Shown here: positions 37,204 through 61,501 of the stretch, piece after piece
Layout: every line of letters begins with the position of its first letter
How positions within the stretch are numbered: the first letter of the stretch is position 1
DNA from: a phage
DNA: 64,000 nt
Strand: one strand, 5' to 3'
Sequence record: PV805633.1
Program-made: the position numbers and the translations under genes
Notes under the pieces: generated by a model
The model's input: only the letters and a program-made list of their open reading frames with translations
Told to the model about the DNA's origin: nothing
Database searches by the model: none

Positions 37204-39158
37204 TTAAGGCATTTTCACATACCCAGGTATGCCTTGGGCTTGGCGTATATACCGTATAGCACGCTCCTGGTTTTCTTTCTCAGCCTCCCGATCTACGGAA
37301 GCCTGTGATCGAAAGTTACGAGGAGCCAGGTTTTGCGGATCAGCCTGTACCTGCCCCTGAGCATTTTTAAGCATTGCAGCAGCTCTAGCAACAGCCTCCT
37401 GTCGTGCAGGTAACAGTGCAGTAAGTGCAGTCTGACCTGTAGCAATCTTATTTGGGTGTTTGACAGTGCAGCTACGGCAGCATCATATGCAGTCTGTGCT
37501 GCCTGAATATTCTGCATAGCCTGAGCACGACCAAGGTTACGTACACTTGCTTCAAGGGGTTCACCACGTTTTAACCCCTCAATCATTTGGTCTACCTGAC
37601 GGTCATTAAGTCGCAAGCCATTACCGGCTTCTGGGGTTTGCCCTATAGTTAGATAATCAATAAGACGTCCTGTATTACTTTCCGGTACGTTAGTCATTGC
37701 ACGTTGAACAACAACACCTGCCATAGCAGGAGATACATTAGCACGCTGAGCAATATCATTGATACGAGCCACAACCCATTGTTTATCTGCCCCCTTAAAG
37801 TCACCCTCTAGTAATCTGTTAGCAACTTCCCCAACAGTAGAAGTGTCATTTAAGGCAGGTAAATAATCAGGAGCAATACTTCCAGCATTGTCCTCCATAG
37901 AACGAGTACCAATCATACCGGTAGCCAGAGTAGATACTGCCTGATTACCTTGGTTATTCTGAACCATAGCTAGTGGGTCAGCCCCTACTTCAGCTTGGGC
38001 AATAACAGGTTTCATCTCTTCCCAAGTCATATCCTTATAAGCACCTGGAGTAGAGTTAGGCAGAGCAGCCCAAGTATCTTTAAGGTTACCGTTCTTACGG
38101 GCCTCGAAGATAGCCCTACCAATCTTATCCTGGTTCTCAGGAGAAAGAGGCTGGCTTTGCCAATCTGGACCAAGAACTTTAGGAGCGAAGTCTAGCAGAG
38201 TAGCTTGGTTAATCTGGAATGCACCAACAGGAGAAGCACCCTGCTTCGACTTCATACTATCCTGATGCTTAATTACATCACCAATACTCATTTGAGTAAT
38301 AGGAGTAGATGTACCAGCAAACTGGTAAGTAACATCATAAGGAGAACCCTGACGAGTACCAGCAGTACCTGGGGCAGACGTAGCACCAACATTGTTACCG
38401 TAAACACCCGGATATGCTCGTGCAAGCATTTCCTGCAAACGTGCCTGTGCAACCGGAGACAGATGCTTACTATAAGATTCTGCCAGAATACGGGCATCGT
38501 CAGCATTCTCAGCACCACGAGTAATCAGTGCCATTACCCCCGTAGCAGCCTGACTATCAGCATCATTACGTTGAGCAACACCTAAATCAAAACGATTCTG
38601 TGCCTGATTAATAGCCTGACCACCCTGACCTTGAAGACGACTCAGCATGTCCAATTGCTGGTCAGCAGGGAGTGCAGACAATGCATCACGGGTCTGACTT
38701 AATGCAGCATTAATACGGTTCTGGTCACCCGACTGATAAGCCTCAGACAGCAAACGAATAGCAGGGGAAGCATTATCTAATGCAGTGTTAGTATCCCGTA
38801 AACGATCAAAGTTATAAGTATTGTAGTCATTGGTTCCCTGCTGACCTTGTTGAGTCAACAGTGTACCTGCTCGCTCATCAAGGTTTTGGAGGGTACGCTG
38901 GTTTATCAATGAAGGGTCAACCCCCTGAAACAGTGCACCAGATGCCAAAGCATTGCGGTACTCAGTAGGGTCTTGGTACTGCATAGCATTCATCATGACG
39001 GCATTGCCAGCCTCCTGCTTGGCAGCGTTCTGGAAATTACCCAGTGCATCACTTAAGCCGGAGGTGGCGTTACCAATCATGCTACCAAATGTGCGAATGC
39101 TGTCACCAACTCCAGAGAAGTTAGGTGCATCAACATTTCTCCACGTTATCTGAGCCAT
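37204..39158 (-). CDS. virion protein (N4 gp51-like), Gln/Ala-rich; reading frame interrupted by a 1-nt indel near 37451-37453
   Basis: 621-aa track ORF ends in R/L-rich out-of-frame sequence; alternative frame gives a coherent C-terminus ending ...GIPGYVKMP at 37204; AGGAAACC SD before ATG 39158. Confidence 0.65.
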
Positions 39159-39170
39159 GATGGTTTCCTA

Positions 39171-39635
39171 TTAACGAGTTAATTTATTAGCTGCAATGTA
39201 AGCATCAGCCGAAGACTGGTCACGGTTCTCTGCTGTAGCACGACTACGAGCACGGTCTTCCAGTGCAGTGTTATAAGACTTAATCTGATTATTCAGGTTA
39301 GTGTTAGTAACACTCTTAGTAAAGTTCAACTGGTCTTTGGCTAACTTGTTAGCCTGGAAACCACTATAGATACCTGCTAAGGAACCAAGTGCACCGAGTC
39401 CTAGCTGGAAGGTAGGAATGTTCATTCCCAACTGATTAGCTGAACCAGATAAGAAAGAGGTGGGCGTAGTTAATCCTGTACCTGCATTCATACCAATAGC
39501 TGCACCCGGATTGTAGTTCATAGCTGGGGTATTAAAGTTCTGATTGTTATTAGACATCCAAGACATAGCAGCTGGCTGTGGGGTTTGGTTGCCTGTTAAG
39601 AATGACAAATCCATGGGGATTCTCCTGTTAAACAA
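39171..39635 (-). CDS. virion protein (154 aa), Gly/Asn-rich
   Basis: ORF track; tight spacing within the late operon. Confidence 0.6.
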   Translation of the reverse strand: MFNRRIPMDLSFLTGNQTPQPAAMSWMSNNNQNFNTPAMNYNPGAAIGMNAGTGLTTPTSFLSGSANQLGMNIPTFQLGLGALGSLAGIYSGFQANKLAKDQLNFTKSVTNTNLNNQIKSYNTALEDRARSRATAENRDQSSADAYIAANKLTR

Positions 39636-42291
39636 GGTCAGTATTAAGAGTCATATCAGAGTAGCTGCCAACCATGTTTAAGGACATGTCAGCTATATCC
39701 GAACCAGTCATAAGAGTACGTGAGAGGAAAGAATCCAACGACTCCATTGACACAAATTGCATAGGGTCAATTACACCCTGCCCAGCAGTACCAAACATTT
39801 CTTCATACTGCTTATTGATTGCCATCATATCAGTATTGTACTGCTGCATTACATTCTCTGCTTTCTGAATAGTAGCAGCCGTAGATGCATTAATATACTG
39901 ACTAATGCCGTTACCTACTGAACTAGTAAGCTGCATGATGTTTTGAGCATTCATCATTTCACTAGCTAAGGTAGATAAGGATGTACCAGTAGACATAGCA
40001 GTACCAACATTCATAGCCACCATTGAAGCAACAGCAGCAATGATAAAGCCTAGCTTATCACCAAATAGTGAAGTAGATACTTTAGTGATAATAGATACCA
40101 GAATCATTGCAGCAATGGCGTTTGCTACAGCACCTACTATTACAGCAGCTAATCCAACAAAGCCAAGTGATGCACCAACTGCACCATATGCCCCAAGAAT
40201 ACCTGCACCACCTGCACTACCAGCACCCATAGTAAATACGGATATAACGACAGCAACTACAACAACCACAATCTTAAAGGCAGAGGACTGATACCACTTT
40301 TTCTTAACCTTTTTATATGAGTTCATTACTAAGTAGGAACAAGCAGTAGACAGTTGAGTACTACGAGTCAGTGACATTGAACGGTAGATGTTAGTGTGTA
40401 GCGGAATAATGAATCCACTCTCCTCTGCATCACCCATCGCCTCAGCAACATCAATATTTACTGACTTATTTTTATATACCCTGTTGCTATGATGAAGGCC
40501 CAATACCCTAAGTTTACGGTAGGTGTTATTACCATCCTGCCAAAGCAACTCATATTCTTGCATAGAGTAAAACGTAGGAGTAACTTCTAATCTTTTAGTC
40601 GAACCAGAGTTACCAGCAGTACGTATGTTCTTACGGGTAAGAGTTATATCTCCTGCATATCTGGCTCGTAGCTGTCCTTGCTTAGCACCAGACCACGCTT
40701 TACCTGAGTGGGTAGTTTCAAATACGTAGTTCCAACTAATAGTCATGTCATACTTATACTGCTTACTACTGTGTACCCTAAACTCTCGCTTAGGTATGAC
40801 GGGGTATTCTGGCAGAGGTGGAGGTGTTCCAACAGTTTGACCTTCCTGCCTGTTCCACCATTCTACATACTCATCGACTGCATCATTTGCTGCCTGATAG
40901 CCTGCAATCACTGCTTCCAGTGTAGGGTAGGTTGGATCAGGTGGGAATGCTTCAGTAGCCATCTGAAAGAAACGGTAGATGTATTCCTTAGCAGTATCCT
41001 CTGGAGTATTTAGGGATACACCGAATGTGCCATAGATGTATTGAATATCACCTATGTCGTCATTCTTCTTAAGCTCAGTCACTACTTTATTAAGCTTACC
41101 ACCAGTAGCTTTATAGAGTGCCTTCTCACAGTGGGGGTAGATTGGGTCATTCTCTACCCATTGTTTATCATTCCTGATTGGAATGAATGGATAGAATCGG
41201 TTATCAGTAGCTTCAGTATCAAACAGGGAATCAAGTGCAACGTTACCTGAGTTCTGCTTATAGATAAGCATCTTAGGTGTACCAACAGCAGTCATCTCAG
41301 TATCAGTACTAGTAGTCTGGGATGAGTACTTACGAACCAGTGTCTCTGTAGTTGTAGTGATTGTATCTGTGCGAGTAACACCACCACCTAAATCAACTAC
41401 ATTGGTAGTTACAGTAGTACTGGATTGAACCTCACCAAACTTTGTATGAGTCATTACCCTGTCGGATACAACCACAGTTACATCATCAGGTTTCTCAGTG
41501 AACCCTCTACGGTAAACCTTAACGTAAGAGTTCCAGCTATCCACACTTGGTTCAGTAACAGTATTGTCTTCATCCGGTCTACCATCAGAGTAAACAGAAT
41601 GAGTCTGTATAGTCTTAGTAAGATTTGTTGTGTTAGCCGTCGTATCACTTGAGATGGTAGTCCATAACAGAGTAGACGGTAAGTCATCTTCGCTGTTATA
41701 GACAGTAGTCGGACCTACTACCGGTGGATTGGTAGCCGGGGACTTATAGAAAGTGTAATCAGCATAGAGATACAAAGCACCTGGTTCAAAGTTAGTAGGT
41801 GTGAATGTAATGGGGGAACCTCCATCTAAGGAGGTCATAGTGATTACATTGGTATCTTCATCAATGTCTACATCGAATCGTTCCATGATTCGACTTGGGG
41901 CATTCTCATAAAGATACTGGTCACACCATTGCTCAAAGTCAGCAAAGCCAATCTCTGCTGCCTGAACATAGACAGATTCTCCAGCAGGTGGAGTAATTTG
42001 ACCCTCTATAACAGTAGGGTCAATCTTAGCCAGTACACCTAACGAAGAACCTGCCATACCAACTTCTGAATCATAGTGGTTCTTGCTCCAGCTAGAGAAC
42101 AGTCGCATACGTATACCAGGCCCCTTCAGATAACTATCAGAGATAGTGTCTGCCATAGTGAATCCTGTATCAGCAACAATCTTACCAATGACTACAGTCT
42201 TCATATAGTTTGGACGTTTGTGTATATCCCCTGCCATGTTATAGACAGAGGATGCTACGTATACTTTGGTCTTACTACTGAATAAGCCCAT
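39628..42291 (-). CDS. large virion structural protein (887 aa) with Gly/Ala-rich hydrophobic segments
   Basis: ORF track; internal TM-like stretch VVVVVAVVISVFTMGAGSAGGAGILGAYGAVGASLGFVGLAAVIVGAVANAIAAMILV. Confidence 0.65.
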   Translation of the reverse strand: MGLFSSKTKVYVASSVYNMAGDIHKRPNYMKTVVIGKIVADTGFTMADTISDSYLKGPGIRMRLFSSWSKNHYDSEVGMAGSSLGVLAKIDPTVIEGQITPPAGESVYVQAAEIGFADFEQWCDQYLYENAPSRIMERFDVDIDEDTNVITMTSLDGGSPITFTPTNFEPGALYLYADYTFYKSPATNPPVVGPTTVYNSEDDLPSTLLWTTISSDTTANTTNLTKTIQTHSVYSDGRPDEDNTVTEPSVDSWNSYVKVYRRGFTEKPDDVTVVVSDRVMTHTKFGEVQSSTTVTTNVVDLGGGVTRTDTITTTTETLVRKYSSQTTSTDTEMTAVGTPKMLIYKQNSGNVALDSLFDTEATDNRFYPFIPIRNDKQWVENDPIYPHCEKALYKATGGKLNKVVTELKKNDDIGDIQYIYGTFGVSLNTPEDTAKEYIYRFFQMATEAFPPDPTYPTLEAVIAGYQAANDAVDEYVEWWNRQEGQTVGTPPPLPEYPVIPKREFRVHSSKQYKYDMTISWNYVFETTHSGKAWSGAKQGQLRARYAGDITLTRKNIRTAGNSGSTKRLEVTPTFYSMQEYELLWQDGNNTYRKLRVLGLHHSNRVYKNKSVNIDVAEAMGDAEESGFIIPLHTNIYRSMSLTRSTQLSTACSYLVMNSYKKVKKKWYQSSAFKIVVVVVAVVISVFTMGAGSAGGAGILGAYGAVGASLGFVGLAAVIVGAVANAIAAMILVSIITKVSTSLFGDKLGFIIAAVASMVAMNVGTAMSTGTSLSTLASEMMNAQNIMQLTSSVGNGISQYINASTAATIQKAENVMQQYNTDMMAINKQYEEMFGTAGQGVIDPMQFVSMESLDSFLSRTLMTGSDIADMSLNMVGSYSDMTLNTDLV

Positions 42292-42292
42292 A

Positions 42293-43135
42293 TTAATTCA
42301 GCCCGTTGTTAATCTTCAGCTTGGACAAAATGGTATCAATACTTGCGTTGGTGAATCCATTAGGTGGGTTCAAGCCTTCATCAATAGTCTTCTGTGTAAT
42401 CCATGCATCAGTAAACAACTTAGATGCTTTAACTTCTGCATCACGTTGGTAAGAAGTAATCTGTTGGGAGTACAACTCTTTCTGTTTACCTACGGAACCC
42501 CTAACTGCTGCACCGTCTGTACGAGTATCCAATGTCTGTGCACGTTGTGCCTCAGTCTGCTCAGTAATCAGTTTAAGCTGTTGAGGTAACATATGGTCAG
42601 CATTAAACAATGCAGCACAGTACGTTTCAGACTCAGTAGCAATCTTCATCTTAGTGAGAGCATATTCACTCTTAGCAGATAGTGCCTGAATCTTAGCCAG
42701 CACATACTGAGCTTTAGAAGTAGCCAGTTGCACTCGTGCAGTAACTGCCTGAATCTGTGCCATAGCAGCAGCCCAGTATGCTTGGTCACGACCGAGTAAG
42801 AACTGAACAGCGTTACTCATGCACGATTCCATCATAGCAATGTATGCTTTGGTATATTCACCACCAGTAATACGGTTAGCTTTAAACTCAGCTTTAAGAT
42901 GGTTGTGTGCAGATTCCATTAAAGCATCAAACGTACCACTACCACCTACTTCACGGGTAGTAAGCGATTCATTCGTTACTTTAGTAATAGCATCAAAGAT
43001 AGGAGAGTCATCACCACCAGGGATATCCCATTCAGGGCCAGACATATCAATGTCAGGGAGGGTAAAGTCATCACCCTTAGTTAACTCTTCTAGGAGTCGG
43101 TTAGCTTCTACCTCAGCAGAACAAGACATAATCAT
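42293..43135 (-). CDS. virion structural protein (280 aa)
   Basis: ORF track; late-operon position. Confidence 0.6.
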
Positions 43136-43146
43136 TCCTCTTGGTT

Positions 43147-43187
43147 CAAAAAGAAACGGCCCACGGAGTTACCCCAGTGAGCCGTGT
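43147..43187 (-). terminator. Rho-independent terminator (minus strand)
   Basis: 9-bp stem with one G-U (43158-43166/43179-43187), 12-nt loop; the A-rich run at 43150-43157 on the + strand is the U-tract on the minus strand. Confidence 0.5.
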
Positions 43188-43205
43188 TGAACTGTAGCTT
43201 ATACG

Positions 43206-43847
43206 TTAATCGTTCAGGCTACCAGCAGCAATCTGTGCTTGAGCCAGTTGAGCCAATTCTGCTTCAGTCAGCGGAGGCAATACTTCAATGGAGAACTCAC
43301 GTGCTTCTGTTGCACGGATATCTGGTAAGCCATTCTTACCTTTACGAGTCGTAATATTGATGAACTTACGCTCTTTAAGGAACTCGTAGATACAGTACGG
43401 AATATGATAACCATTGTCGGTAACTTCACCGAATGGAACAAACTTACGCACAGTACCCATATATTCGTTAGCTACGGTGATAATCTCACCCGGCAGGTCT
43501 TTCTTCTTAGGGTCAAGGTTCTGGATACGTACACGAATCAGTCGAGTTTGTTCTGCACGAATCTTCTGACCCAGGGTCATCTTCTTAACACCAGCTTCCT
43601 GTTTTTCACCCAAAGGGTTAACAGCAGATTCTTTTACTTCTGGTTCATCTTTTGCTTGTGCAGCTTCAATTTTCTCACGGAGTTTCTCAACGGAGATGTT
43701 GTTAGAGAACTTAATATTCATCAACGTTGCACGTTGCTTAAGAACTTCAAGTTCGCTAGGCATTGCAATATCGTTAACGGTATCTTCGTTGCCCTGTACG
43801 TCCAGTTCTACGCCAGTGGTCGGTTTATCGTTAATGCTCATGTTCAT
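43206..43847 (-). CDS. virion-associated protein (213 aa)
   Basis: ORF track; immediately downstream of the capsid gene. Confidence 0.6.
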   Translation of the reverse strand: MNMSINDKPTTGVELDVQGNEDTVNDIAMPSELEVLKQRATLMNIKFSNNISVEKLREKIEAAQAKDEPEVKESAVNPLGEKQEAGVKKMTLGQKIRAEQTRLIRVRIQNLDPKKKDLPGEIITVANEYMGTVRKFVPFGEVTDNGYHIPYCIYEFLKERKFINITTRKGKNGLPDIRATEAREFSIEVLPPLTEAELAQLAQAQIAAGSLND

Positions 43848-43877
43848 ATTTCCTGTGGTTCAACTAGTTTTATTAAG

Positions 43878-43907
43878 AGGGGGACACTAGTCCCCCTTAT
43901 TTTATTT
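43878..43907. terminator. stable hairpin downstream of the capsid gene (AGGGGGAC/GTCCCCCT, 4-nt loop) with T-rich 3' flank on the + strand
   Basis: Perfect 8-bp stem; TATTTTATTT follows on the + strand. Confidence 0.45.
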
Positions 43908-43914
43908 AGGACTA

Positions 43915-45117
43915 TTACAGAGGAGCAACAGTCTTAATCAGAGCCAGACGTTCCGGACGTTTAACCAGGATACCGTAGTACCACTTGATGGAACTGAAAC
44001 CAGTCTCACCATACGGGTCATTACGGTCAGCAGTTTCACGACCAGGCATCTTAGTCATGATGGAGAACTTAACAGACTTACCATCAGTCTGGAAGCCAAT
44101 GGTAGAGAAGGAGTCATCACCAACTACCAGCATCGGGAACACGTCATAGTGTTCTTCACCACTAACCATAGAAGAACGGTAACCCGGGTTAGTAGAGACT
44201 TGAGCACCAGCACCTGCCCAATGCAGCATCTCAGGAACCTGGATAATACGGAACTTGTCGATACAACCAATCTCACCATTCATCAGAGTACCAGCATCAG
44301 CATAGTGCTGAACCTCGATGAATGCTTTGTTACCGAATAGGTCTTTCATCGCTTTCAGTTCTGGAACAAGTTCAGAACCAACGTACATTACACGAGTACC
44401 ACCAAGTACTTTGGTATCGGTAAGTTTAGAACCAGTGATGATAGTAGTCTGGGTCGGAGTACGGTTCTCAGTAAGAATCTGGTCAAGACGCATCAGGTTC
44501 TTATAAGAAACTACAGATGGGGTAGCACCTTCACCAGTGATGGTAGCATCGGAGGTAGCAGCACCTGCATACAGTACAGTACCAGCAGCAGCCAACAGAT
44601 CTTTCTGGAGAACAGCTTCAGTCAGCTGTACAGCACCGTTCATCAGTTCACGAGACAGGTGTTCTTTCAGTTGGTCATCAGAATCAAAGTCCAGAGACTC
44701 TTGAGTAAATTCGTAGAAGAAACCGAACTTATGAATGGAACCTTCACGAGACAGACGAGTAAAGCCTACACGGTTAACACGACCACCGTTCTCTGTCAGC
44801 AGAGGCAGTTTAGAAGTGATGTTACCAACGTCTCGGGAAGAACCATACAGGTTACCATTAACAATGGTAGCACCATTAGCATCAATACCCTGGTCGTTGA
44901 TGTTCTTATCGTCAAGCAGTGGAACGTATTCATACACCTTAACAGTCTTACCGTAGTTCTTCGGCATGTTAATGGTGTTAGCCAGTGGCATGAAGTACTG
45001 GTCTTTACGGGACTGAATAATAGCTTTCTTCAGCCAGTAATAGGTATTCATCTGGTCGGAACCAGTACCATCAATGCTAGATTTCTGGCCGTCAATTGGG
45101 GCGTTATAGTTTAACAT
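43915..45117 (-). CDS. major capsid protein (HK97-fold class, N4 gp56-like)
   Basis: 400 aa, matching N4 MCP size; position between scaffold-like gene and portal; followed by a stable hairpin. Confidence 0.7.
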
Positions 45118-45133
45118 ATCATCTTATTCCTGT

Positions 45134-46354
45134 TTAAAGACTACCCGGTACTGGGAGTTTAGCGAAATCTTCATCACTCATAGCGAGTGGGTTTACAATA
45201 GGTGTTGCTTTACGTGTAGCAGCCCGATTAAGGGAAGCTGCTTTAGCTTGCTCACTGTTAGCCAGAGTCTGCTTAGGTTGTGCTACACGCACTACCGGCT
45301 GAACTACTGGTTTAACTGCTTGTACCGGTTCTGGCTTAGCCACTCGGTTAAATGCCCCCTGCTGTGCAAGGAGGTTACCGACGTGGTTATAAGCCTGAAT
45401 GAACGGAGTACCTACCGGAATCTGGCCTAACATTTGAAGACGGTTCACTTCGTTTGCAATGGTGTCATAAATACCATTCTCACGTTGTTCGTGAATAGTC
45501 TGGAGTAGGCCACGATTCTGGTAAAGAGCTTCTTTACTGGCAGCATCCCATGTCGAGCCGATAACACCTAATGTAGCTTGTCCTTCTTGAGTAGACTTTA
45601 AGTCGTCAATTTCGGTTGCAAAATCTGCTTCGGTGTCGGTAACACGGTGATTGCCACCCTGGTAGTTAATTTCTTCATCTGGATTAAAGTCCAGAGGATC
45701 TGTACCAGAGTCTTTGAGCAACTTCTTAATGGCTTCAGGATTCTTTTTATCCAGGTCAATAAGGAAAGAAAGTTTATCCTCATCCATCAAACCGTTGTTC
45801 TGTAACATCAGCATTACCTTACGGTAAGGCTTTAGTTCTTGCATCTTACGAGTATAGTTAGCACCCATCTGCATCAGGCTAATGGCCTCCTCCGGTGAAC
45901 GGGGAGTAATTACTTTGCCGTTAGCTTTAAAAGGAGCCATCAACTTCTCGTAACCTTCTTTATAGTTGAAGTCAGCAGGCAGACCTTCAGACTGTTTGCC
46001 TTCTTCTTTCTGTTCCTGGCCTGGTTCAGTAGTAGAAGGTTCAGCTTTAGTAATCGGCTCGCCGTTACTATCAACTTCTGTGTCAACAACTTTATCATCA
46101 ACTTTATCAGAAGTTAAAGGATTTGCTGAATCTTCTTCATCTGGTTCGGCTTCAGGGGAGGTTTCTTCAGTTGGTAGGTCTTCAACAGCAGGGGTGTCAA
46201 CTTCTTCTTCAGGAGTCTGTACGCCGTTGGTTTCTGGGTTGTTCTGAGTGGAAGTATCTTCCTCAGCAATAATTGCTGGGGCTTCCATATTCAGAATCTC
46301 ATCATCCGACATTGCGAGAATGTCGGAAGCTGTGGTTGCAGCTTCCGTAGTCAT
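45134..46354 (-). CDS. putative scaffolding protein (406 aa, acidic N-terminal region)
   Basis: Acidic, Pro/Glu-rich N-terminal third; located directly upstream of the capsid gene. Confidence 0.45.
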   Translation of the reverse strand: MTTEAATTASDILAMSDDEILNMEAPAIIAEEDTSTQNNPETNGVQTPEEEVDTPAVEDLPTEETSPEAEPDEEDSANPLTSDKVDDKVVDTEVDSNGEPITKAEPSTTEPGQEQKEEGKQSEGLPADFNYKEGYEKLMAPFKANGKVITPRSPEEAISLMQMGANYTRKMQELKPYRKVMLMLQNNGLMDEDKLSFLIDLDKKNPEAIKKLLKDSGTDPLDFNPDEEINYQGGNHRVTDTEADFATEIDDLKSTQEGQATLGVIGSTWDAASKEALYQNRGLLQTIHEQRENGIYDTIANEVNRLQMLGQIPVGTPFIQAYNHVGNLLAQQGAFNRVAKPEPVQAVKPVVQPVVRVAQPKQTLANSEQAKAASLNRAATRKATPIVNPLAMSDEDFAKLPVPGSL

Positions 46355-46373
46355 AGGAAATATCTCCGGTTAA

Positions 46374-46718
46374 TTATTCGTCTTCAGGTTCAGCACGAAC
46401 TGCGTCGAGTTCTTCTTCTACCTGTAGAATAACGTCAGCTTCGTTTTCGCCCATACGAATGGCAAGATCAAGCCAACGACGTAAGTGACCAGCAGCTTGA
46501 GCCATGTTCAGTGCATCTGCACGGTTATTAGGTTCAAGCAGTGGGTCACCAGACTCTTGCACGTAACGTGCACAATCTTCCGTACAGAACTGGCGAAGGA
46601 TTACTTTACGGAACAGTGGATTCTCCAGAAGTTTACGTACATCTTCTGCATGTGCAACTGCACCTTTAGCAGCTTCCAGTCGATGTTCCAGTCCAGCGAT
46701 TGTTGATTCTTTACTCAT
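46374..46718 (-). CDS. hypothetical virion-module protein (114 aa)
   Basis: ORF track. Confidence 0.55.
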   Translation of the reverse strand: MSKESTIAGLEHRLEAAKGAVAHAEDVRKLLENPLFRKVILRQFCTEDCARYVQESGDPLLEPNNRADALNMAQAAGHLRRWLDLAIRMGENEADVILQVEEELDAVRAEPEDE

Positions 46719-46731
46719 GTGAAGGTCTGCC

Positions 46732-49002
46732 TTACAGGTTCATGCCAAGAGCCGATGCTGGGTCTTGGCTAGGGTCATAGTATTGGGAACTAAGTGAATA
46801 AGACGGGTCTTGCTGAGCAGCTAAATCCCGTTCTGGTATAGAGTTCACGTTAGTCAAAGTATTATATCCAACAGCTGCAGATATGTTGGGGGTAGTTTCC
46901 CCTTCTTTAATAGGTGTTGTCAATGCCTTAGTTATTTGAAGGTTCTGGTTTCCTTGGGATTGTGCTTTTTGTTTTTCCATATCACGAGCATGTTTAGTAC
47001 CAGATTCCTGTTCCAGATAATCCAGGTCTTTAAGGTCACCACTAGAAGCAGCCTCTTTAGCTTTAGCCATATTGAGTGCAATCTTACTTTGCAACTCTTC
47101 ATTCTCAAGCTGTGCTTTCTGAATTGCCAATTGCTTAAGCTGTTCTTCCATAGGGTCTGGTTGTGGTTGCCAAGTACGTAACTCATGAGCCAGGTCAGGC
47201 ATACGTTTAAGCTCTGCAATCTTAGCTACGAGGGATAATGTAATAGTCTGGTCAACCGTATTACCCAATGTTTGAACCATGAAGCTCAAGTCCTGGGATT
47301 TCTGGTTATCAATTTCAGCAGTGTTAATATCAACCTCAATGTCGAAGTTACCTTTAAGATCTTCACGGTTAATCTCTACATACTGCTCGTTAGTAATACG
47401 TACTACTTCCTTCTCAGATAAGAACACAGCATTCATTGCACAAATCTTAGTACCAATGTCTGCCATACCCTTAGCTAATCGACGAAGGATTGCCATCTCA
47501 CGCTTGGATGCTGCATCAAGTGCACCACGAATACCAGCAGCCACATCTCCGTATGCTGAACCAGTTACACCACCGGAGAATGCTTTAACACCAGTTAATG
47601 ATTCAGCTTCCTGGTTTTGCATCTGGGTCATTATTATTGCCGACTGAGGTAACTCAGGGAACTTATGTTCCATAATGGCTTGACTAGGATTACCCTGCAT
47701 TGGGTTGTATTCATAGTCTTGCCCATCGTCATAACGACGTCGGTTTAGTGTATCCAACATCCCTTTAGGATAACCACGTTGACCATTTGCACTTCGACCT
47801 AACAGGTCAATCATCCCACGCATAGTTGCACCAAGAATTGCTTGGTTATCCCCCAACAGTTCAGCATCAGCTTCACCAAAGAGTTCACGTTTACGAGGCA
47901 TGTAAGGAACAACTACTAAAGGTAATTTGCCGTCAGGGAATGGGTTCCTCTCCATACGAATAAGGGTAGAACCAATCCAGGTAGCAACAATAGGTTCCAG
48001 AGAACCATCATCATTGATGTCGTAGAATCCCCAGTATTCATAAGCAACAACTTTCTTACGTAGTGCATCCTTAAACTGAAAGTCACTAGGGGTTTTACTT
48101 TCATGGTCTGGGTCAGTCATAGGACTGGAGCTTTCCCAGTCAATCTTATCTAAGTTGTGATATATGTCCTTGTTCTTCATGAGGTCTGCTTTGCATGTCT
48201 CAAACGAGATAACTGCATACAGAGCCTTATCCAAATCACCATTACAGCTTGGGTCAATAACTACGTTATTAGGGTTAAGCATTTCAACGGTAGGTCTGTT
48301 AACTAGTGCCTTCTCTACTTCTACTTCAGTAACTCCCGTTTGAATTGCATAGGTAGCTTCCCCGGTTTCATTGAAGTAGTTAACAGCTTCCTTAATATCT
48401 TCCGGCATTGTTTCATCATACTCACGAGGATTCTCTGCCTGAAGCTGTAAAGCTTGTTGAAGAACATCAGCTTGTTCCTGGTTCTCAATTGGATACAACT
48501 GGAATACTGGTGTTTCTGTTTTAATCTTAACAGTCTTACGTTCCCAACCAATACGAGCAATACCAGTGCCATCATCTACGACACTATGTACATAATCATC
48601 TACCAGTTTCACTTTATTAAGCTGAGTACGGAATTGGTAGTTAAGAACTAATTCATTCTGGCGTGCAGCTAACTCATCTTCAAAAGTAACAGGGGTTACT
48701 TTAAAGAGCTTATTAGACGAGAGAAAAGGCTCAGACAATGGAGCATATCGCCATTCTGCCTGACGGCGAACCAGTCTGGGTTGGACTTGGGAACGTCCCT
48801 TAACCTTTGGGGGTTTAGCTTTACCTTTAACTTCCATCAGGTCATTCCACTCACGAATCTGTGCCATAATTGCATCGTGAGCAGGTTTAGCTGATTCCAA
48901 ATCACCCTTCAGTAATTGGATACTTGGTTCCTTCTTCCAGTCCGTTAACTTCTCTGATTGAGCCGGGTCTGGTAAAGGCTTAAAAGTGTCTTGGTGTTCC
49001 AT
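46732..49002 (-). CDS. portal protein
   Basis: 756 aa, close to N4 portal size; position upstream of capsid-assembly genes. Confidence 0.7.
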
Positions 49003-49010
49003 AGTTAATC

Positions 49011-49511
49011 CTATTCAAAAAGTTTACGGTCAGCCTGAATTTGCTTACCCAACTCAATTAGTTGGTTGTCACGGAGTCTAACAGTTGCCCGGAGTTCTTC
49101 AACCAAACGTCTGCCTTCTTCAAGACTGTTGTCGAGTCTGGCTGCATGGCTTGCAAGACTTCTGCACTCAAGGGTTCCGGCTTCGGCTTGACGTTTATAT
49201 ACCGATGCTCGTCTTTCAGACTGTTGCATCCGGCTGTCGTAATCACTGCTAACGCGAGCAAGCTCGCTTGCGTAATTACTCTCAGCCGTCTGCAACCGGG
49301 AAGTAAGTAACCCGACTTCATAACTATGGTTTCTTTGGAGAGCATTGTATTTGTCCTGTAGTTTTTGTGTTGCCTTCTGGTCTTCAACCTTTTGAGCATC
49401 CCATCTCTTTTGGACAGTAGACTGTCCATTGGAATTGCCCCAAAAGTAAATGGTGGCCCCGAGGACCACCACCAGAAGATAAGGCCAACCTTTAGAGATT
49501 AGCATCTTCAT
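49011..49511 (-). CDS. Rz-like i-spanin (N-terminal TM helix, coiled-coil periplasmic domain)
   Basis: [27 protein letters not shown] followed by a charged coiled-coil region; GGAGG 7 nt before ATG 49511; contains an embedded lipoprotein ORF. Confidence 0.65.
49058..49321 (-). CDS. Rz1-like o-spanin lipoprotein embedded within the Rz gene in another frame
   Basis: Signal peptide with lipobox-like ...[12 protein letters not shown], Pro-rich mature region; wholly inside Rz. Confidence 0.55.
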   Translation of the reverse strand: MKSGYLLPGCRRLRVITQASLLALAVITTAGCNSLKDEHRYINVKPKPEPLSAEVLQAMQPDSTTVLKKADVWLKNSGQLLDSVTTN

Positions 49512-50126
49512 TACATGCCTCCAGTGGTACATTACCGATTCGGTTAGCTACCCAACCATACGTAAAGTCTGGCATGTTCAATGAGGTGTAGTGGTTCAAT
49601 TGTTTAGCATCAAGCAACTTAATCATTACCTGACATGCTGCAACTTTGCCTCGTTTTTTCTGTAATGCTTTATATGCATTAACAGTACCTGCACCGACTT
49701 TACCATCAACTTGTATTTTAGGGTAGTCTTTGCCATCACGGGACATTTCATTAAGGGATTGCTGCAACCACTTAGCTGGTCTGGTTACACCGGTATTAAC
49801 ACCAGCATCAACCAGTTTGTGTGTTACAGCAGGAGATATATCAGCGAAGGCTACGAAGTTAGGCTTAATAACGTAGTCATCAATGTATATCTCAGCAGCC
49901 ATTTCTTTCGATAAACCCTTCATGGAACCATCCCAACCATACTCAGTAGCCAGAACTTCTTTGTGAGACTTAGCTACTGATTGGGTAATACCATGATTGG
50001 TTTCCCCACCTGGGTCACGAGGATTGTTTACGTACCCCCTTCCATATAGAACACTGCCCCCAGAATAGCAGCGATAACTCCTCCCACCGCACCCCCTTTT
50101 GCAGCAAGTTTCTGTTTAGCTTTCAT
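49492..50126 (-). CDS. GH108 N-acetylmuramidase endolysin with PG-binding domain and N-terminal Gly/Ala-rich TM (SAR-like) segment; frame broken at a C5 run (50035-50039)
   Basis: Frame 0 from ATG 50126 encodes MKAKQKLAAKGGAVGGVIAAILGAVFYMEGGT*; the -1 frame continues with the family motif GYVNNPRDPGGETNHGIT and the track ORF 49492-49923; combined length ~210 aa. Confidence 0.65.
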
Positions 50127-50376
50127 GGGAATCTTCCTTTGGATGGAAACGTATTAGTCTGCCCACAATGTTTAAGGCAAACAGTGCGATTGTAATACTG
50201 GAACCATGTGGAATATCTTCAAGGATGTGACGTGGTAGTCCTGTTAGCATTGGTTGGATAATATCTACTGTAGAAAACAGAATTAATCCAAATGCACTAA
50301 TCTGAACAGATGCCCACTTCCAGGACTTCTTCCAGTTAGGAACTAGCCCTATTTTTCTTTTTAGCTTGCGAACCAT
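50116..50376 (-). CDS. holin-like small membrane protein (2 predicted TM)
   Basis: GGGAGA 8 nt upstream of ATG 50376; hydrophobic segments WASVQISAFGLILFSTV and SSITIALFALNIVG; directly upstream of the endolysin. Confidence 0.5.
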   Translation of the reverse strand: MVRKLKRKIGLVPNWKKSWKWASVQISAFGLILFSTVDIIQPMLTGLPRHILEDIPHGSSITIALFALNIVGRLIRFHPKEDSHES

Positions 50377-50693
50377 GCGAATATCTCCCGTCTTGCAGCA
50401 GCCAATACACCAATAATTGCACCTGCCCCAGCCCATACCCACTTACCAAAAATCCCAGCACCTGCAACCTTATGTTTGATGGTGATGAACTCTTCAATGG
50501 TAGGTTCGGACTTAGTGATGCTCTCCTCTACCCGTTTAAGTCGGGTACTGAGGTCACCCATAGACTCGCTTAGCTTTTTAATAGACTCTTCCATTTTCTC
50601 CCTATCCCTCGATTCACGAGTTTGGTTTTCGAAAATGTTTCTCAGTCTCTCTTCAAGTCTGGCTAGAGTTACGTTATCTGGTTCATTTCCCAT
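50361..50693 (-). CDS. lysis-associated membrane protein (coiled-coil N-terminus, C-terminal TM helix)
   Basis: 110 aa; C-terminal GIFGKWVWAGAGAIIGVLAAA; first gene of the lysis cluster. Confidence 0.5.
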   Translation of the reverse strand: MGNEPDNVTLARLEERLRNIFENQTRESRDREKMEESIKKLSESMGDLSTRLKRVEESITKSEPTIEEFITIKHKVAGAGIFGKWVWAGAGAIIGVLAAARREIFAWFAS

Positions 50694-50895
50694 AGGGATT
50701 TTCTCAGGTTAGTTAAGTCGTAATTGACTAAAACAGTCTACCTAATGACTTGTTTTTGGTACAACAAAACCCACCCCCGCAACCTAGTTGGGCTGGTTAA
50801 AGCCTGAAATATGGAACAGCAGTCACCAAAACAACAAAGACCATACTTAGGATTGAGACAACCATATGGGTGGCTATATGCGTATAATATTTTTA

Positions 50896-50919
50896 GGGAG
50901 CAAGTATACACCTGCTCCC
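50896..50919 (-). terminator. terminator-like hairpin between the tailspike gene and the lysis cassette
   Basis: 7-bp stem GGGAGCA/TGCTCCC with 10-nt loop; the + strand AT-rich tract 5' of the stem (50882-50895) is the 3' flank on the minus strand. Confidence 0.35.
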
Positions 50920-50938
50920 CGGAGCTATCTCAGAGCCA

Positions 50939-53479
50939 TCAGAACACAAAATCCAGTTGCATAAGCTGCTTCAACTGAATCTGCACGGTACTATCCTGGG
51001 TTACTTCCGGAACAGTTAAGCCAGAAACACCGATTGCAAAGTCCGCAATGAACCCGGTAGTAGGATTCCTTACTATATCCGCCCCAGTACCCCCAGAACC
51101 TGTACTTGCAAACTGAGTCTGCTTAGAACCAAAAGCATTACCTGTACCTGCAATAACTAGTTGCCATACACCCCTGCCGAGCGTACCTGGAATACTCAAG
51201 CTACCTGAACCAGCAGCACGGAATATCTTGGTATTCTCATAGAACATACACTCTTGCAACGTGCAGGTACTTCTCTGCCCGGTACTCAGTACCTGATTAC
51301 CCTGGAAGCTAAAGTTAGTCTGGTCATTCAGAACGAAGTCGCAGAGCATGGATGCTTGCAACTGCACGTTCATATCCAGAGTGTTGGCATGTGCAATCAG
51401 GGACTTAGGAATGCCTCCAATACGATAACCGGGGGAGCGGTAGTTCAGGTTCAGCGTGTTCAGTTGCTTAATACTGTTACCCACCAGCTTAACGGTTTGC
51501 CCACGATATACTTCAGTTGCGTTGGTGCCGGCGTTAATCATGACACCTTCTGCTTTATTGCTGGCGGTTAAGCACTTAAGCACTACAGTATTATGACTTA
51601 CGTCAATATCCTGGTACACCTGGTATGCGCTATCGCCACCTCCAGTTGATATAGCTACCCCATCAAAAGCTCTAAGCTCGCAATAGTTGTTGTGAATCTT
51701 AACAAAGGGGTTCGGATACGTCGCTGCCGTAGCCTCCCCACCCCCACCTACATCGATGCTGCGGGTGTACCTGCCGCCCGCAAGCGGACCGGTACTGGTA
51801 CTATCCGGAATATCCCTGGAGCGCACATAGTTGTTAGAGATTATGAGGTTATATGGTTCATAGTTTGGGTGCCAGCCTGAACCACATTTAGCGTAGATAC
51901 CGACTACGCCATGCTCCAGGCAGAAGTTATCAGTGATAATTAACTGACCCCCACCGTGAAAATCGATGCATTTTCTACGGCAGTTAAAAACGAAATTGCG
52001 GCTGGCTGTTATGTTGCGTATTCTCCTGTTTCTACCATGTCCGATGCCATAGCCAGGGTCAAAGGATGCATTCAAATCATCAGCACCGTTCGGGTGTCCG
52101 ATGTTGCTAATTACATTATCAAAGTAGCCCATTTTGTAGCCACACAGAACACCTATACCGTTTGAGTAACAGTTGGTTATTGTGTTCTTTGAAATAATAA
52201 TACCTTCTGGAACATCGCTTTCATTTGGGTAGTCCGCCATGTCCGGTGAGGCAATATTTCTTATGCCAATCCCAACACCTGCATAGTTAAAGCCAGATAT
52301 CTTACACCTTTCAACGGTTATATTTTTACAAGCTCTTTGAATCTTAACACCGCAACTCCAGCTGCCAATATACCCGCCAAGAAAAGTACCCCAACTGCTT
52401 TGGTAGCTTCCTGTTGGATTACCCGCACTGTCATAGGATGGGAATTGTCCGGACACCTCATTAAATGCCCCTGTGTTATAACTAGAGGTATCAACTGAGT
52501 TATTTGGTCCCAACACATTAACTCCACCGGCTGTATTGTAGCCAAATCGAGATTCTCCTTTCTCTGCATAACCAGTAGGCGCATCTATAGCAGGGAACTT
52601 GTTAGGGCCACGCACTGTTACAGACACAGTCACGTTCCGGCAATTTACAAGGGCAAGCCCATCCAGTCCGTGCGTATTCACAATTATAGTGCCGTTGGAG
52701 ATACGAATACCTTCCTTATTTACCAGTGCCAGACACGGACTGTAGTTACGTGTACCGTCGCTGAAGTCAGGCTCAGTAGGGTACGTAGAAGCCAGTGCAG
52801 GATTTTTCGAACTAAATACGTCTTCCCGCCTAAATCAATATCTCCAGTGGTGGCGTCGAAACATGCCTGCACTGCCAACGTATCGTCGGCAACGCCATCA
52901 CCAACCGCCCCCCCATCCACGTGGATCGCCATTATCACGCCAGCGAGCCATTTGTAGTTCGGGGTATTTTGTTGCACCTTCAGGGTCTGAAATCTGTCCT
53001 CGTAGTACCGCATCCCCAACACTCACCCAAGCACCCAGACCAACGCCACCAGAAGTTTCGGGGGTTGAATCAGCAGGAACCTCTTTAGGTAATGCTCCAT
53101 CCCAACGGTACTTACCATCAGTGAATACAACCAGTTCATTCTTAGTATTAACTGTTACACCAGTAGCAAATGAACCAGGTAGGGTTACATACTCTTCACG
53201 AGCAACAGCCAGTGCACCTAAGTCCACACTACCAGCAGAATGAACTAATACTCCAGCAGGGCTAAGACTTACAGCAGTAACCCCTGAACCAATATCAGCA
53301 GGTAAGGAATAAGCACGCTGTGACGCTTTGTCATAAATGACTTTGTAACCAGTAAGCAGAGCACCCACTGAGAAGTAAACAACTTCCGATTGTTTAACCC
53401 CAAAGTGACGGGCTACTGCTTGTTTGTTGGTTAATATTCCGGTTGATCCTCTTCCACCTTGTGAGAATAATTCGTTCAT
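50939..53479 (-). CDS. tailspike/tail fibre protein with right-handed beta-helix (pectate-lyase-like) domain; split into three ORFs by two single-base homopolymer frame breaks
   Basis: Pieces 52898-53479, 52720-53022 and 50939-52681; beta-helix entry motif GAVGDGVADDTLAVQA in the middle piece; AAGAGG SD before ATG 53479. Confidence 0.65.
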
Positions 53480-53528: not shown

Positions 53529-56252
53529 TTAGCCAATGGACATACGGGAGTTAGCGAAATCATACGCATCTTGCTTTTTAGCAAACTGCGTTACGAAGTA
53601 GTCGCTGATACGAATTACACACCCGTTCGTTGACTGCAACTTAAGACGGCAAGTTCCTGCTGTTGCCGCCTGTCCTACACCGAAAGTATGCACCCATTCT
53701 CCTGGTGATGTGTATAGCCCCCCAAGAGGTACAGAATCCGCAATAGATGCCGTAACATCACCACTTACCAGTTTAAGACTGCACCCCCATACAATCTGAT
53801 AATACTGCGCTATGTTAGCCACTGGTTCACTCAAGAATAGGGTATATCCGGCAGGTATTACTAACTGAGCGCAAGTATCGCTTAACACACCGTCAGTAAC
53901 CGATGTGGCGTCTACGGTGCTCGTCCCGACAAACGCCCACGGCCCGCTCCCTGAAAAAGATTGTGAGTTTAGTACCGTACCAGTATGTGGGCGCTTTATT
54001 CTTCCGTTCAGCTTTGTACCACGAAGTGACAAATCCAGGTTACTGGCCACAGTGGATGAAACACTCGCCACAGATTCAACGTGAACCTTATCGCCGACGT
54101 AGCCACCTACGATAAGGTCGTGCGCAATAATCTGGCTTCCGTCGTCAACATTGATACTATACACACCAGTCGCGGCATCAAACCTACAGTTTTTTGCCAC
54201 CAGGGTAGAGCTTATCAGCTCAATATTGTTAAAATGGCACCCTTCCGCAACAGTTACCGGAACATTCTCTATTTTTAACTGTCTCGGGGTTTGCGGAACC
54301 CCGTCAACAGTTACTGTGTCTGCGGTGGCTACCAATTCGAACCATACGTTGCTGATAGTGGGCGGTACGACAGGAGCCAATCCATTGCCTTTAAAATAAA
54401 TACCGCCACCAGGGCATGCCTCAATGATACAGTCACGAATTGCTATGCCGTCAAGACCACCACCAGGAGCAGGACCTCCGACAGCGCCATTAAGGTAAAT
54501 GCTGTACGTATTAATTCCTGCAAAATGGCAATCCCTCCATGTATCAGCCCCGACATGCATGCCTGGGTCTGATACCGCCATATGGCCGTAATTACACGCC
54601 AGATAGCTACAGTGTTGGTACGTGTTGCCGATGTTTCCTTTCGGCTTGTAAAATCCAATATCAAGACCGTCAAAGGCAATATCCCTAAAGTTCCATCGGC
54701 CATCAAGATTAGATGATCCAAAAGCTATGCCTGTACCAACAGGGGTGGTTATGTCCCCTTCGATGAGGAAGTTCTGGGCGTGCCGATACTGCCACAGGCG
54801 GGAAGACTCGGTTAGAGTTAAACTTGTTTCCCCGGAGGATGGTTTAAATTTTACCTGATAACCAGTACCAATTATGTTGGCATTTCCCGATGTGTATTGC
54901 CCCGTGTAAGTACCAGGAGTGACCAGGAGATCATCTCGCCATCCAGTTGCATCAATAGCATCCTGTAAGTCTAAGTAATTACCAGAATGTTTAATATCAT
55001 CAAGATTGTCAGCAACAGTTCTCGTCCCATGACCAACGGATGCAGAACCAGTTGTCTGTGAATAGAAGTCCTTAACTTCAGCGATAATACTTTCCTTGGG
55101 AACATCCAATGGTAGTAGGTCAACTGTTACGTTACCGGGGGAATACGTTAACTGACCCTCACTAACAGATGCAATGTAAACGTTATTAGGTAAAGTAGGT
55201 AAGACATAGATGTGTTGGTTAACCACATCATAAATAACCTTCATTCCATTCAGATACTGAGTAGTATTAGTACTCAGTATAACTTCATTCTCCTGCACAT
55301 TAGCAGAACGAGCTACTTCCTGAATGGTACGGTCAGACATAACCAGGGTAGTAGACTCACCACCAATAGTTACAATCAAACGATCGTTGGTAGCCAGAGG
55401 CTCTGTTAAAAGGATACGCTGGTTAGCTGCATCGACTGTATAGGACTTATCAGCCAAACCTGCATAGTAGCGTTCGCCATTCTTGTAGATGGCTGGTACA
55501 GATTCAAACGTATACGGAACAGCAATTACTTGCTCACCACCCGAAGCATACCCACCGTTGTATAGCCAGTTAATCTGAACCCAGTCATTTACGTTAGGGT
55601 TATCTGGAACAGCAGGAGTACCGGTAAGGAACAGATGTACTTCATCACCTGGTTCCAATGGTTGAGCCAGAGTAACAGTTAGTGAAGCTGCATCATAGGT
55701 AAAACCATAACCAACTAAGTTGGTGTAGCCCCCAATTACAATCATCGGTACACCAACAGTGCCAGCAGGCACTGGGATAGTGGTTTCACCCCCAATAGCA
55801 GAACCATTGTTATATGAATATGGGATGTATGGTGGAGATGCTTTACCATCACCAGAATCTCCACCATCATCTGAATTAGAAGTGGCAACCAAAATCCAGG
55901 AACCAGTAGCAGACTGGTCATCCGGAATAACACCTGTACGGTCACCATCTACATACAGGTAATCTGTAACAACTCGTTTATTGGTATTATCAAAACCATA
56001 CAGACGTACATAGGATGCACTGGTAGGCATGGCCTTCAGTTCAGTTTCTGATTGAACACCTAGTACCATTCCATATTTATTTAAGAAATCATAAATGAGT
56101 TTAAGGTTACCCAAGTTACAGTAAACAGTGCGAACCACATGGTAAGCATTACCAAGTAGTGCATCTACCATTGGGTCGTTGGATCTATTCTGGCAGTAAG
56201 GATTAGACCAATCCTGATTTGCATCGAAGGGGGTATGTGCGTTCATCGCCAT
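53529..56252 (-). CDS. second receptor-binding/tail protein (907 aa) with beta-helix-like repeats
   Basis: Large ORF; Gly/Asn-rich repetitive segments such as ...IAIRDCIIEACPGGGIYFKGNG typical of beta-helix adhesins. Confidence 0.6.
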   Translation of the reverse strand: MAMNAHTPFDANQDWSNPYCQNRSNDPMVDALLGNAYHVVRTVYCNLGNLKLIYDFLNKYGMVLGVQSETELKAMPTSASYVRLYGFDNTNKRVVTDYLYVDGDRTGVIPDDQSATGSWILVATSNSDDGGDSGDGKASPPYIPYSYNNGSAIGGETTIPVPAGTVGVPMIVIGGYTNLVGYGFTYDAASLTVTLAQPLEPGDEVHLFLTGTPAVPDNPNVNDWVQINWLYNGGYASGGEQVIAVPYTFESVPAIYKNGERYYAGLADKSYTVDAANQRILLTEPLATNDRLIVTIGGESTTLVMSDRTIQEVARSANVQENEVILSTNTTQYLNGMKVIYDVVNQHIYVLPTLPNNVYIASVSEGQLTYSPGNVTVDLLPLDVPKESIIAEVKDFYSQTTGSASVGHGTRTVADNLDDIKHSGNYLDLQDAIDATGWRDDLLVTPGTYTGQYTSGNANIIGTGYQVKFKPSSGETSLTLTESSRLWQYRHAQNFLIEGDITTPVGTGIAFGSSNLDGRWNFRDIAFDGLDIGFYKPKGNIGNTYQHCSYLACNYGHMAVSDPGMHVGADTWRDCHFAGINTYSIYLNGAVGGPAPGGGLDGIAIRDCIIEACPGGGIYFKGNGLAPVVPPTISNVWFELVATADTVTVDGVPQTPRQLKIENVPVTVAEGCHFNNIELISSTLVAKNCRFDAATGVYSINVDDGSQIIAHDLIVGGYVGDKVHVESVASVSSTVASNLDLSLRGTKLNGRIKRPHTGTVLNSQSFSGSGPWAFVGTSTVDATSVTDGVLSDTCAQLVIPAGYTLFLSEPVANIAQYYQIVWGCSLKLVSGDVTASIADSVPLGGLYTSPGEWVHTFGVGQAATAGTCRLKLQSTNGCVIRISDYFVTQFAKKQDAYDFANSRMSIG

Positions 56253-61412: not shown

Positions 61413-61415
61413 ATC

Positions 61416-61442
61416 AATAGGAGGCTCTTCGAGCCTCCTATT
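61416..61442 (+). other. perfect 12-bp hairpin (AATAGGAGGCTC / GAGCCTCCTATT, 3-nt loop) directly after the stop codon
   Basis: Perfect inverted repeat; no U-tract; the 12-mer AATAGGAGGCTC recurs at 63563-63574 in the terminator. Confidence 0.5.
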
Positions 61443-61501
61443 AAGGGCATTAGATAGATAGATAGTCAGTTCTGTATAAAAAGATAGGAGAGATACCTAC
61501 T

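Follow-up and report, generated by a model that had tools for sequence, protein, structure and literature searches.

Six single-base frame breaks that disrupt five genes in a Gamaleyavirus genome are, with a probability that we put at roughly 0.88, consensus indel errors (five deletions and one insertion relative to related phages) that arose when the genome of a viable, lytic G7C-like phage was sequenced or its consensus polished. The window, that is, the whole 64,000-nucleotide stretch analysed here, is the genome of a G7C-like E. coli phage of the N4 family (Schitoviridae) and shows about 95% DNA identity to G7C. It contains the vRNAP, replication, structural and lysis modules alike, and its gene order is collinear with that of G7C; the lesions are consensus base-call indels and not misassemblies. 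The broken genes encode the virion protein gp51, the endolysin, the tailspike (which is hit twice), gp67 and the product of an early ORF. The real genome would most likely encode intact versions of all five, including the gp67 adaptor and a 134-aa early protein. This interpretation is well supported by comparison of sequences, and its proof would lie in the reads.

Extent of the frame breaks

The sequence-only reading had pointed to four homopolymer indels in late genes and attributed them to assembly errors as opposed to biology. The artefactual origin is supported by the one-base fixes, the unshared indels, the purifying selection on downstream frames and the combination of losses that the assembly implies, whereas assembly error proper is not, the lesions being base-call indels. 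The count rises to six with the addition of gp67 and the early ORF, so that one lesion falls in an early gene and the pattern is not confined to late genes. The four runs originally named are exact, each lying at a point where homology to orthologues switches frame, and the corrections proposed for them (+1, +1, +1 and -1) restore the reading frames.

Each G7C protein that has an orthologue within 1-37.1 kb, including the 3748-aa vRNAP, DNA polymerase, primase, helicase, SSB and rIIA/B, yields a single tblastn HSP, with full-length coverage in all cases except gp41; the vRNAP and replication genes are thus intact, as had been stated. No breaks beyond the six were found in a search that also included comparison of a gp28-like ORF with its PhAPEC5 orthologue, and where G7C has no counterpart, the listed ORFs likewise appear unbroken. 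Scans of the window for tRNAs and Rfam families gave no matches. Apart from the six frame breaks, which set the window apart from Gamaleyavirus genomes, it differs from G7C in that the HNH genes of the latter are missing.

Loss of a lone base in gp51 and the endolysin

The gene for the virion structural protein gp51 (37204-39158, minus strand) carries a one-nucleotide deletion at a T3 run (37451-37453), where tblastn homology to the orthologues passes from frame -3 to frame -2 (approximately 37443-37452). The coding strand reads CCCA-AAT in the window vs CCCAGAAT in five relatives, in DNA alignments that took in PD205, PhAPEC7, G7C and a Logan contig. Addition of one base yields a protein of 651 aa, the length found in PD205 and P0121, and nearly all of the 120 gp51 matches listed are full-length (about 647-662 aa). 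A truncated form of 621 aa was found neither among these 120 nor among the closest homologues of the tailspike.

The gp61 endolysin gene (49492-50126, minus strand), which encodes a GH108 N-acetylmuramidase domain and a PG_binding_3 domain, is broken at a C5 run (50035-50039). Homology again switches from frame -3 to frame -2 in tblastn (approximately 50034-50058), and the zero frame meets a stop three codons past the break, which falls within the M-E-G-G-Y (EGGY) motif at the start of the GH108 domain. The coding strand is GG-GGG in the window vs GGAGGG in relatives: all seven endolysin loci examined, representing four phages (PhAPEC7, G7C, PhAPEC5 and one IMG/VR viral contig), contain GGAGGG, and none contains GGGGGG. 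The corrected product has the orthologue length of 211 aa and matches PF05838 and PF09374.

At both sites a lone base interrupts the run in all relatives (CAGAAT in gp51, GGAGGG in the endolysin); therefore the T3 and C5 runs are themselves products of the deletion, and the description of these two lesions as homopolymer indels does not hold. A synonymous substitution followed by a homopolymer under-call (CAG to CAA, GGA to GGG) is possible in principle since the lost base occupies the third codon position, but we reject this route: no relative has the required CAA or GGG intermediate, so that plain loss of a single base is the simpler account. If the breaks are artefacts, the gp51 coding strand would be expected to read CCCAGAAT (or CCCAAAAT) and the endolysin GGAGGG (or G6). 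Classical homopolymer miscalls less often take the form of a lost single base, which is a point in favour of genuine mutation at these two sites.

Two probable, opposite errors in the tailspike gene

The gene for the tailspike, which corresponds to G7C gp63.1 (50939-53479, minus strand), contains two opposite one-nucleotide errors located 105 nt apart. Its product comprises a Tail_spike_N anchor, as judged from the Pfam annotation of intact homologues, and a receptor-binding part that matches beta-helix tailspikes; relative to G7C-like Gamaleyavirus genomes, this part has been exchanged for a module that also occurs in an Agtrevirus and in Kayfunavirus-type Enterobacter phages. Homology to the P46FS4 tailspike, traced by tblastn, leaves frame -1 at the C7 run (52908-52914; G7 on the coding strand) and re-enters it at the T5 run (52803-52807; A5 on the coding strand), and three-frame translation shows two in-frame stops between these points. 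The C7 run, the only coding-region run of at least 7 nt in the window, has one base too many (G6 is needed to read GDPRGWGAVGDG), whereas the T5 run has one too few (A6 is needed to read TYLVRKNPALAS).

G6 and A6 are found at these sites in the P0002 contig, which comes from an independent, Illumina-type metagenome and encodes an intact homologue, whereas the error-prone records of Enterobacter phages have G5 at the G-run and A6 at the A-run. The corrected tailspike, for which A6 and G6 would likewise be expected, consists of 846 aa and shows 78% identity to intact P0002 across the full length, 89% identity to intact P0001 over 89% of its length, and 93-94% identity to both in the junction segment. 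The closest homologues are intact and about 800-900 aa long; the corrected length falls within the 800-850 aa range of the closest intact ones, and the orthologues measure about 813-844 aa.

A frame switch in a receptor-binding gene calls to mind the hypermutable poly-G tracts of Campylobacter phages, which are much longer than G7. The window resembles that system in that the G-run lies inside the tailspike gene and a change in its length switches the frame; unlike it, the window has no more than G7 here (G6 in relatives), and the frame is regained only through the other, opposite error at a distance of 105 nt. We consider it very improbable that at least one of the lesions is real and tolerated, for example if the tailspike G-run were a mutable on/off switch for the second receptor-binding protein, or if the gp67 deletion were rescued at low level by -1 slippage on an A_AAT_TTA heptamer that it brings into phase.

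The gp67 adaptor and an early ORF

Two junctions had been flagged as suspicious, and each indeed contains or adjoins a real one-nucleotide break. The gene for the virion protein gp67, an SU10-type head-tail adaptor (56243-56952, minus strand), has a one-nucleotide deletion at 56717, outside the flagged ORF overlap (56659-56674). The window has G at this position vs GG in G7C, that is, ACT-CAAA on the coding strand vs ACTCCAAA in relatives, which is also the sequence that would be expected in the real genome. Once corrected, gp67 is 236 aa long, the same as in G7C, and matches PF24175. In the second case, the lesion (62730-62731) lies inside the flagged interval (62700-62763), in an early ORF of 134 aa in relatives (62662-63065, plus strand). 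The window reads GT-AAT, in contrast to GTAAAT or GTGAAT in relatives, so that GT[A/G]AAT would be expected, and correction by one base restores 134 aa. The alignment included CU10EC and VTCCBPA_322, each annotated with an intact 134-aa CDS; the lesion is a change from AAA to AA only with respect to CU10EC, VTCCBPA_322 having GAA.

The gp67 site also bears on the idea that full-length proteins are made from the sequence as written, by ribosomal frameshifting, transcriptional slippage or phase-variable runs. Programmed -1 ribosomal frameshifting occurs in phage structural genes such as lambda G/GT and T7 10A/10B, and the window shares with these cases adjacent ORFs that can be joined by a shift: after the deletion, gp67 contains an in-phase A_AAT_TTA at which a -1 slip would restore the orthologous frame with only two residues changed, and the tailspike G7 run formally fits G_GGG_GGC. 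However, the phase of AAATTTA arises automatically once one base is lost immediately before AAA TTT A, the RNA 3' of the heptamer folds no better than shuffled sequences (z=0.20), and the tailspike site requires +1, not -1. No in-phase slippery heptamer was found at the gp51, endolysin or early-ORF sites, and two sites run into a stop within 3-4 codons. Unlike in the lambda and T7 systems, shifts in mixed directions would be required and no stimulatory structure is present; all relatives have uninterrupted ORFs, so that neither the two-ORF arrangement nor the slippery site is conserved. Transcriptional slippage and phase variation are known from far longer runs than those in the window. Programmed frameshifting is rejected for lack of conservation, the wrong phase or direction of the heptamers and the absence of downstream structure, and we regard this whole class of explanations as highly unlikely.

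Evidence common to the six sites

Every break is a one-nucleotide difference from each relative examined within otherwise well-aligned sequence, and the comparison with related genomes that had been proposed as a check found the orthologue-type base count in every one of them. The one-base fixes yield proteins of 651, 211, 846, 236 and 134 aa, all but the 846-aa tailspike being equal in length to their orthologues. None of the indels is shared with any relative or independent assembly examined. Pattern scans of IMG/VR at four of the sites, with either base count allowed, returned only orthologue-type counts or no matches. Exact look-ups of the gp51 fragment, gp53 and the gp66-like tail protein of the window detected no independent copy; the single contig that has an identical gp63 protein represents another phage, whose tailspike differs, and an independent genome identical or nearly identical to the window was not found. 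EC1-UPM, which its paper describes as sequenced with Illumina and as having a tail fibre of 928 aa, does not match the window.

The dN/dS values past the breaks (0.04-0.23) are similar to those upstream (0-0.15), which implies that the downstream frames have been under selection through essentially all of the divergence from the relatives; such low values would also be seen if a real mutation had arisen very recently. Taken as it stands, the assembly describes a phage without an endolysin, a head-tail adaptor, a tailspike and an intact gp51. On established phage biology, a lytic phage that forms plaques cannot do without endolysin, head-tail adaptor and further virion proteins all at once; no phage that propagates could bear all these defects, and an artefact is therefore favoured over biology.

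Some or all of the indels could nevertheless be genuine, in a defective or mixed population or in a stock with a dispensable, decayed second tailspike or early ORF. As the counterpart of G7C gp63.1, the tailspike may plausibly be non-essential on some hosts, and so may the early 134-aa ORF. Against genuine mutation, the catalytic motif of the endolysin and the head-tail adaptor are struck as well, five genes are broken together, no decay is seen past any break, the opposite-sign changes in the tailspike fall in runs whose length is also wrong in other assemblies, and the lesions appear in no other contig examined. We consider this explanation unlikely.

The distribution of the breaks is a point in favour of this alternative: all six lie within 37.4-62.8 kb, with none in the preceding 34 kb of coding sequence, a clustering in one part of the genome that would not be expected of errors arising uniformly. 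A post-hoc split gives p=0.006, but the hand-calculated range statistic is only about 0.05; the clustering was accordingly rejected as a biological signal and treated as unexplained unevenness in data quality.

The residual indels of nanopore, 454 or Ion Torrent assemblies are the closest parallel to the lesions, which we favour as consensus errors. The points of likeness are changes of ±1 nt at or beside runs with a 5:1 bias towards deletion, conserved genes split into adjacent ORFs that one-base fixes return to orthologue length, and a tailspike G-run whose length is also wrong in further phage records of low quality. Unlike in that pattern, two of the six sites have lost a lone base between runs, and the spread is uneven. 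A pre-existing long homopolymer changes length only at the two tailspike sites (G6 to G7 and A6 to A5), where the homopolymer description stands; the gp67 (CC to C) and early-ORF (AAA to AA) lesions involve short runs of 2-3 nt. The errors would thus sit at or beside both short and long runs, and some of them would remove a single base that separates two runs of a different base. From the deletion-biased profile, we infer a nanopore consensus or low-coverage flow-based data (454/Ion Torrent) as a better source than Illumina. The corrected proteins would have masses of about 70 kDa (gp51), 27 kDa (gp67) and 90 kDa (tailspike), and their junction peptides would include RGWGAVGDGVADDTLAVQ and TYLVRKNPALAS.

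Implications

Left uncorrected, the genome would yield about 10 fragment ORFs instead of five genes, and such fragments, on entering protein databases and comparative analyses, could be misread as pseudogenes, new small genes or cases of recoding. In their place, the corrected proteins can be used. The frame breaks are almost certainly a matter of data quality, with no new biology in them.

Genome context and survey for broken genes

In a megablast search the segment 37000-53600 matched 141 phage records, the best being members of Gamaleyavirus that infect Escherichia (G7C, PhAPEC7, ST4, Bas96 and others; 91-95% identity), and the whole window is collinear with G7C (NC_015933; blastn). Early and replication genes occupy the plus strand up to ~24 kb, vRNAP and late genes the minus strand at 25.8-59.2 kb, and beyond 59.2 kb lies the terminal-repeat region followed by the first early genes. 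Both G7C ends (1-468 and ~71.7-72.5 kb) map to one stretch, 60946-62318, that runs on into gp2; thus, the terminal repeat is a single collapsed copy and the assembly is circularly permuted with respect to the physical genome ends. G7C gp1.2 has no counterpart in the window by protein and DNA comparison, and none of the four G7C HNH homing-endonuclease genes (gp2.1, gp24.1, gp41.1, gp47.1) was detected by tblastn (sites 2160, 17850, 23650-23880 and 62320). The ~1.8 kb between the early-gene end and the convergent vRNAP gene (24050-25850) aligns with G7C only with many indels and contains no sizeable ORF, tRNA or Rfam match.

When the 79 annotated G7C proteins were used as tblastn queries against the window, each protein whose orthologue lies in 1-37.1 kb gave a single HSP, including the 3748-aa vRNAP, DNA polymerase, primase, helicase, SSB and rIIA/B, and all these orthologues except gp41 are full-length, which bears out the earlier view that the vRNAP and replication genes are intact. 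HSPs split between two frames are confined to gp51 (~37443-37452), the gp61 endolysin (~50034-50058) and gp67 (~56710-56764). The gp41 homologue (17596-17880) comprises 94 aa vs 156 aa in G7C, with residues 1-85 alone aligning; the missing part adjoins the G7C site of gp41.1, where G7C carries a duplicated short stretch of the gp42 start. The gp36 homologue (NTP pyrophosphohydrolase, 12487-12620) is just 76% identical to that of G7C, compared with 99-100% for its neighbours, and this indel-dense patch is probably a recombined segment. The gp66-like tail protein (53529-56252) is an intact 907-aa ORF (1063 aa in G7C) that resembles G7C gp66 in the first ~375 residues only (67% identity), the distal part being a different module.

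Frame breaks and their reconstruction

In total, six breaks were identified in five genes; one is an insertion and the others are deletions. A previous sequence-only reading listed four homopolymer indels; the runs T3 (37451-37453), C5 (50035-50039), T5 (52803-52807) and C7 (52908-52914) are present exactly there and all four sites are real, but lesions in gp67 and an early ORF have to be added. On the coding strand of gp51 (37451-37453), PD205, PhAPEC7, G7C and one Logan contig read CCCAGAAT and the window CCCA-AAT, with a lone G lost. In the endolysin (50035-50039), GGAGGG of the relatives is GG-GGG in the window, with a lone A lost; all seven loci fetched from four phages read GGAGGG and none GGGGGG. 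This lesion falls inside the M-E-G-G-Y motif, which stands at the start of the GH108 domain; a zero-frame stop follows three codons on. In gp67, the lesion is at 56717 (coding strand, ACTCCAAA in relatives vs ACT-CAAA, CC to C); the previously suspected junction at 56659-56674 reflects a truly broken gene but is itself the overlap of two gp67 ORF fragments. The other suspected junction, 62700-62763, is a real break: in an early 134-aa ORF (ATG at 62662) one base is lost at 62730-62731 (GTAAAT or GTGAAT in relatives vs GT-AAT), and with this early gene affected, "essential late genes" no longer holds as the common factor. The adjacent gp2.2-like ORF (62361-62660, 99 aa) carries a 108-nt in-frame insertion (62540-62647) relative to CU10EC (63 aa), adding a C-terminal tail with CYECG...HNNC that looks like a small zinc-binding motif.

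Beyond its N-terminus, the tailspike (50939-53479) lacks a close equivalent in G7C. Residues 1-168 share 86% identity with the N-terminus of the PhAPEC7 tail protein (Tail_spike_N anchor), whereas the remainder comes closest both to ORF5, the tailspike of Agtrevirus P46FS4 (65% aa identity, whole protein), and to the tail-fibre region in Kayfunavirus-type Enterobacter phages (76-82% DNA identity). In this mosaic, modules have been exchanged across three phage families. With the P46FS4 tailspike as tblastn query, frame -1 matches across the whole gene except ~52790-52945, where two stops occur and three-frame translation reads ...GAVGDGVADDTLAVQACFDATTGDIDLGGKTYLVRK... in another frame. Compared with an ENA metagenome contig encoding P0002, an intact 844-aa tailspike homologue, the coding strand has A5 instead of A6 at 52803-52807, one too short, and G7 instead of G6 at 52908-52914, one too long; the latter is the sole run of at least seven in the coding regions of the window. 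Two Enterobacter phage records, PQ039555.1 (1450-4118) and OP272492.1 (1589-4201), have G5 and A6 at these runs; there the homologous tail-fibre gene is broken up into numerous small ORFs, annotated as 6-10 "hypothetical proteins", and these records also look heavily indel-affected, with G5 where G6 is expected.

Changing one base per site yields ORFs of 651 (gp51), 211 (endolysin), 846 (tailspike), 236 (gp67) and 134 aa (early ORF), equalling the orthologues from PD205 and P0121, a gp51 homologue (651 aa), G7C gp61 (211 aa), G7C gp67 (236 aa), and CU10EC and VTCCBPA_322 (134 aa). The corrected endolysin contains Glyco_hydro_108 and PG_binding_3 domains, and the corrected gp67 an SU10_adaptor domain (Pfam). 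After correction, the tailspike shares 89% identity with a second intact homologue, P0001, across 89% of its length and 78% identity with P0002 over the full length; a 101-aa segment spanning both junctions is 93-94% identical to P0001/P0002. The RGWGA(V/I)GDG motif is kept in three homologues with the same linker region, and its GA(V/I)GDG core together with TYLV(R/S)KN in all eight homologues. The comparison with related genomes proposed earlier as a check showed none of the six lesions in those examined.

Sequencing error versus biology

Consensus indel error is the best explanation of the six breaks (probability roughly 0.88). No lesion is common to any relative or independent contig examined. 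As written, the genome is without a functional endolysin, head-tail adaptor, intact gp51 or tailspike and, by established phage biology, a lytic phage able to propagate, or dominating a population, cannot bear all such defects. Genuine mutations are unlikely, given that five genes would have to be broken at once without downstream decay: in Nei-Gojobori counts with the nearest relatives as reference, dN/dS downstream of the breaks is 0.10 (gp51), 0.23 (endolysin), 0.04 (gp67) and 0.10 (early ORF), with similar values upstream. The downstream frames accordingly were under selection throughout divergence, and the lesions must therefore have arisen very recently if they are real at all. The two tailspike changes, of opposite sign and in two runs, are separated by 105 nt containing stop codons, and they do not represent a natural frameshift that has been compensated.

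Programmed recoding or phase variation appears highly improbable. The gp67 deletion does put A_AAT_TTA in X_XXY_YYZ phase, where a -1 slip would restore the frame, but this phase follows automatically from base loss just before AAA TTT A, and the RNA downstream shows no structure (z=0.20). Furthermore, relatives carry plain uninterrupted ORFs, the tailspike G7 site needs a +1 shift, and the remaining sites lack an in-phase heptamer.

Under consensus error, the attribution to homopolymer miscalls applies to the two tailspike sites, the sole length changes in long homopolymers; the gp67 and early-ORF losses are in 2-3 nt runs, and those in gp51 and the endolysin are lone-base losses, with the T3 and C5 runs being products of the deletion only. 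For these last two, one could conceive of a synonymous substitution with a later under-call, since the lost bases are third codon positions, but this route was rejected, the intermediate being found in no relative. With this mixture of site types, the indel profile is general and deletion-biased rather than purely homopolymer; of the proposed pyrosequencing, semiconductor or nanopore sources, this pattern would fit nanopore consensus or low-coverage flow-based data. Because synteny is intact, the "assembly errors" of the sequence-only reading, correctly preferred over biology, are better described as base-call errors than as misassemblies. The longest run in the window, T13 at 81-93 in the tail of a terminator stem-loop downstream of gp17 (T7 in G7C), is non-coding and may likewise have the wrong length.

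All six breaks lie within 37.45-62.73 kb (~25.2 kb coding) and none in the preceding 34.4 kb of coding sequence, where 8.2 would be expected (p=0.006, for a split chosen after the fact); a range statistic calculated by hand from the same numbers gives p ~0.05. This clustering could stem from uneven coverage, a mixture of data types or partial manual curation.

These frame breaks look like the residual indel errors well known from phage assemblies. They hold no new biology; in practice, they leave six bases to be checked and provide five corrected proteins.
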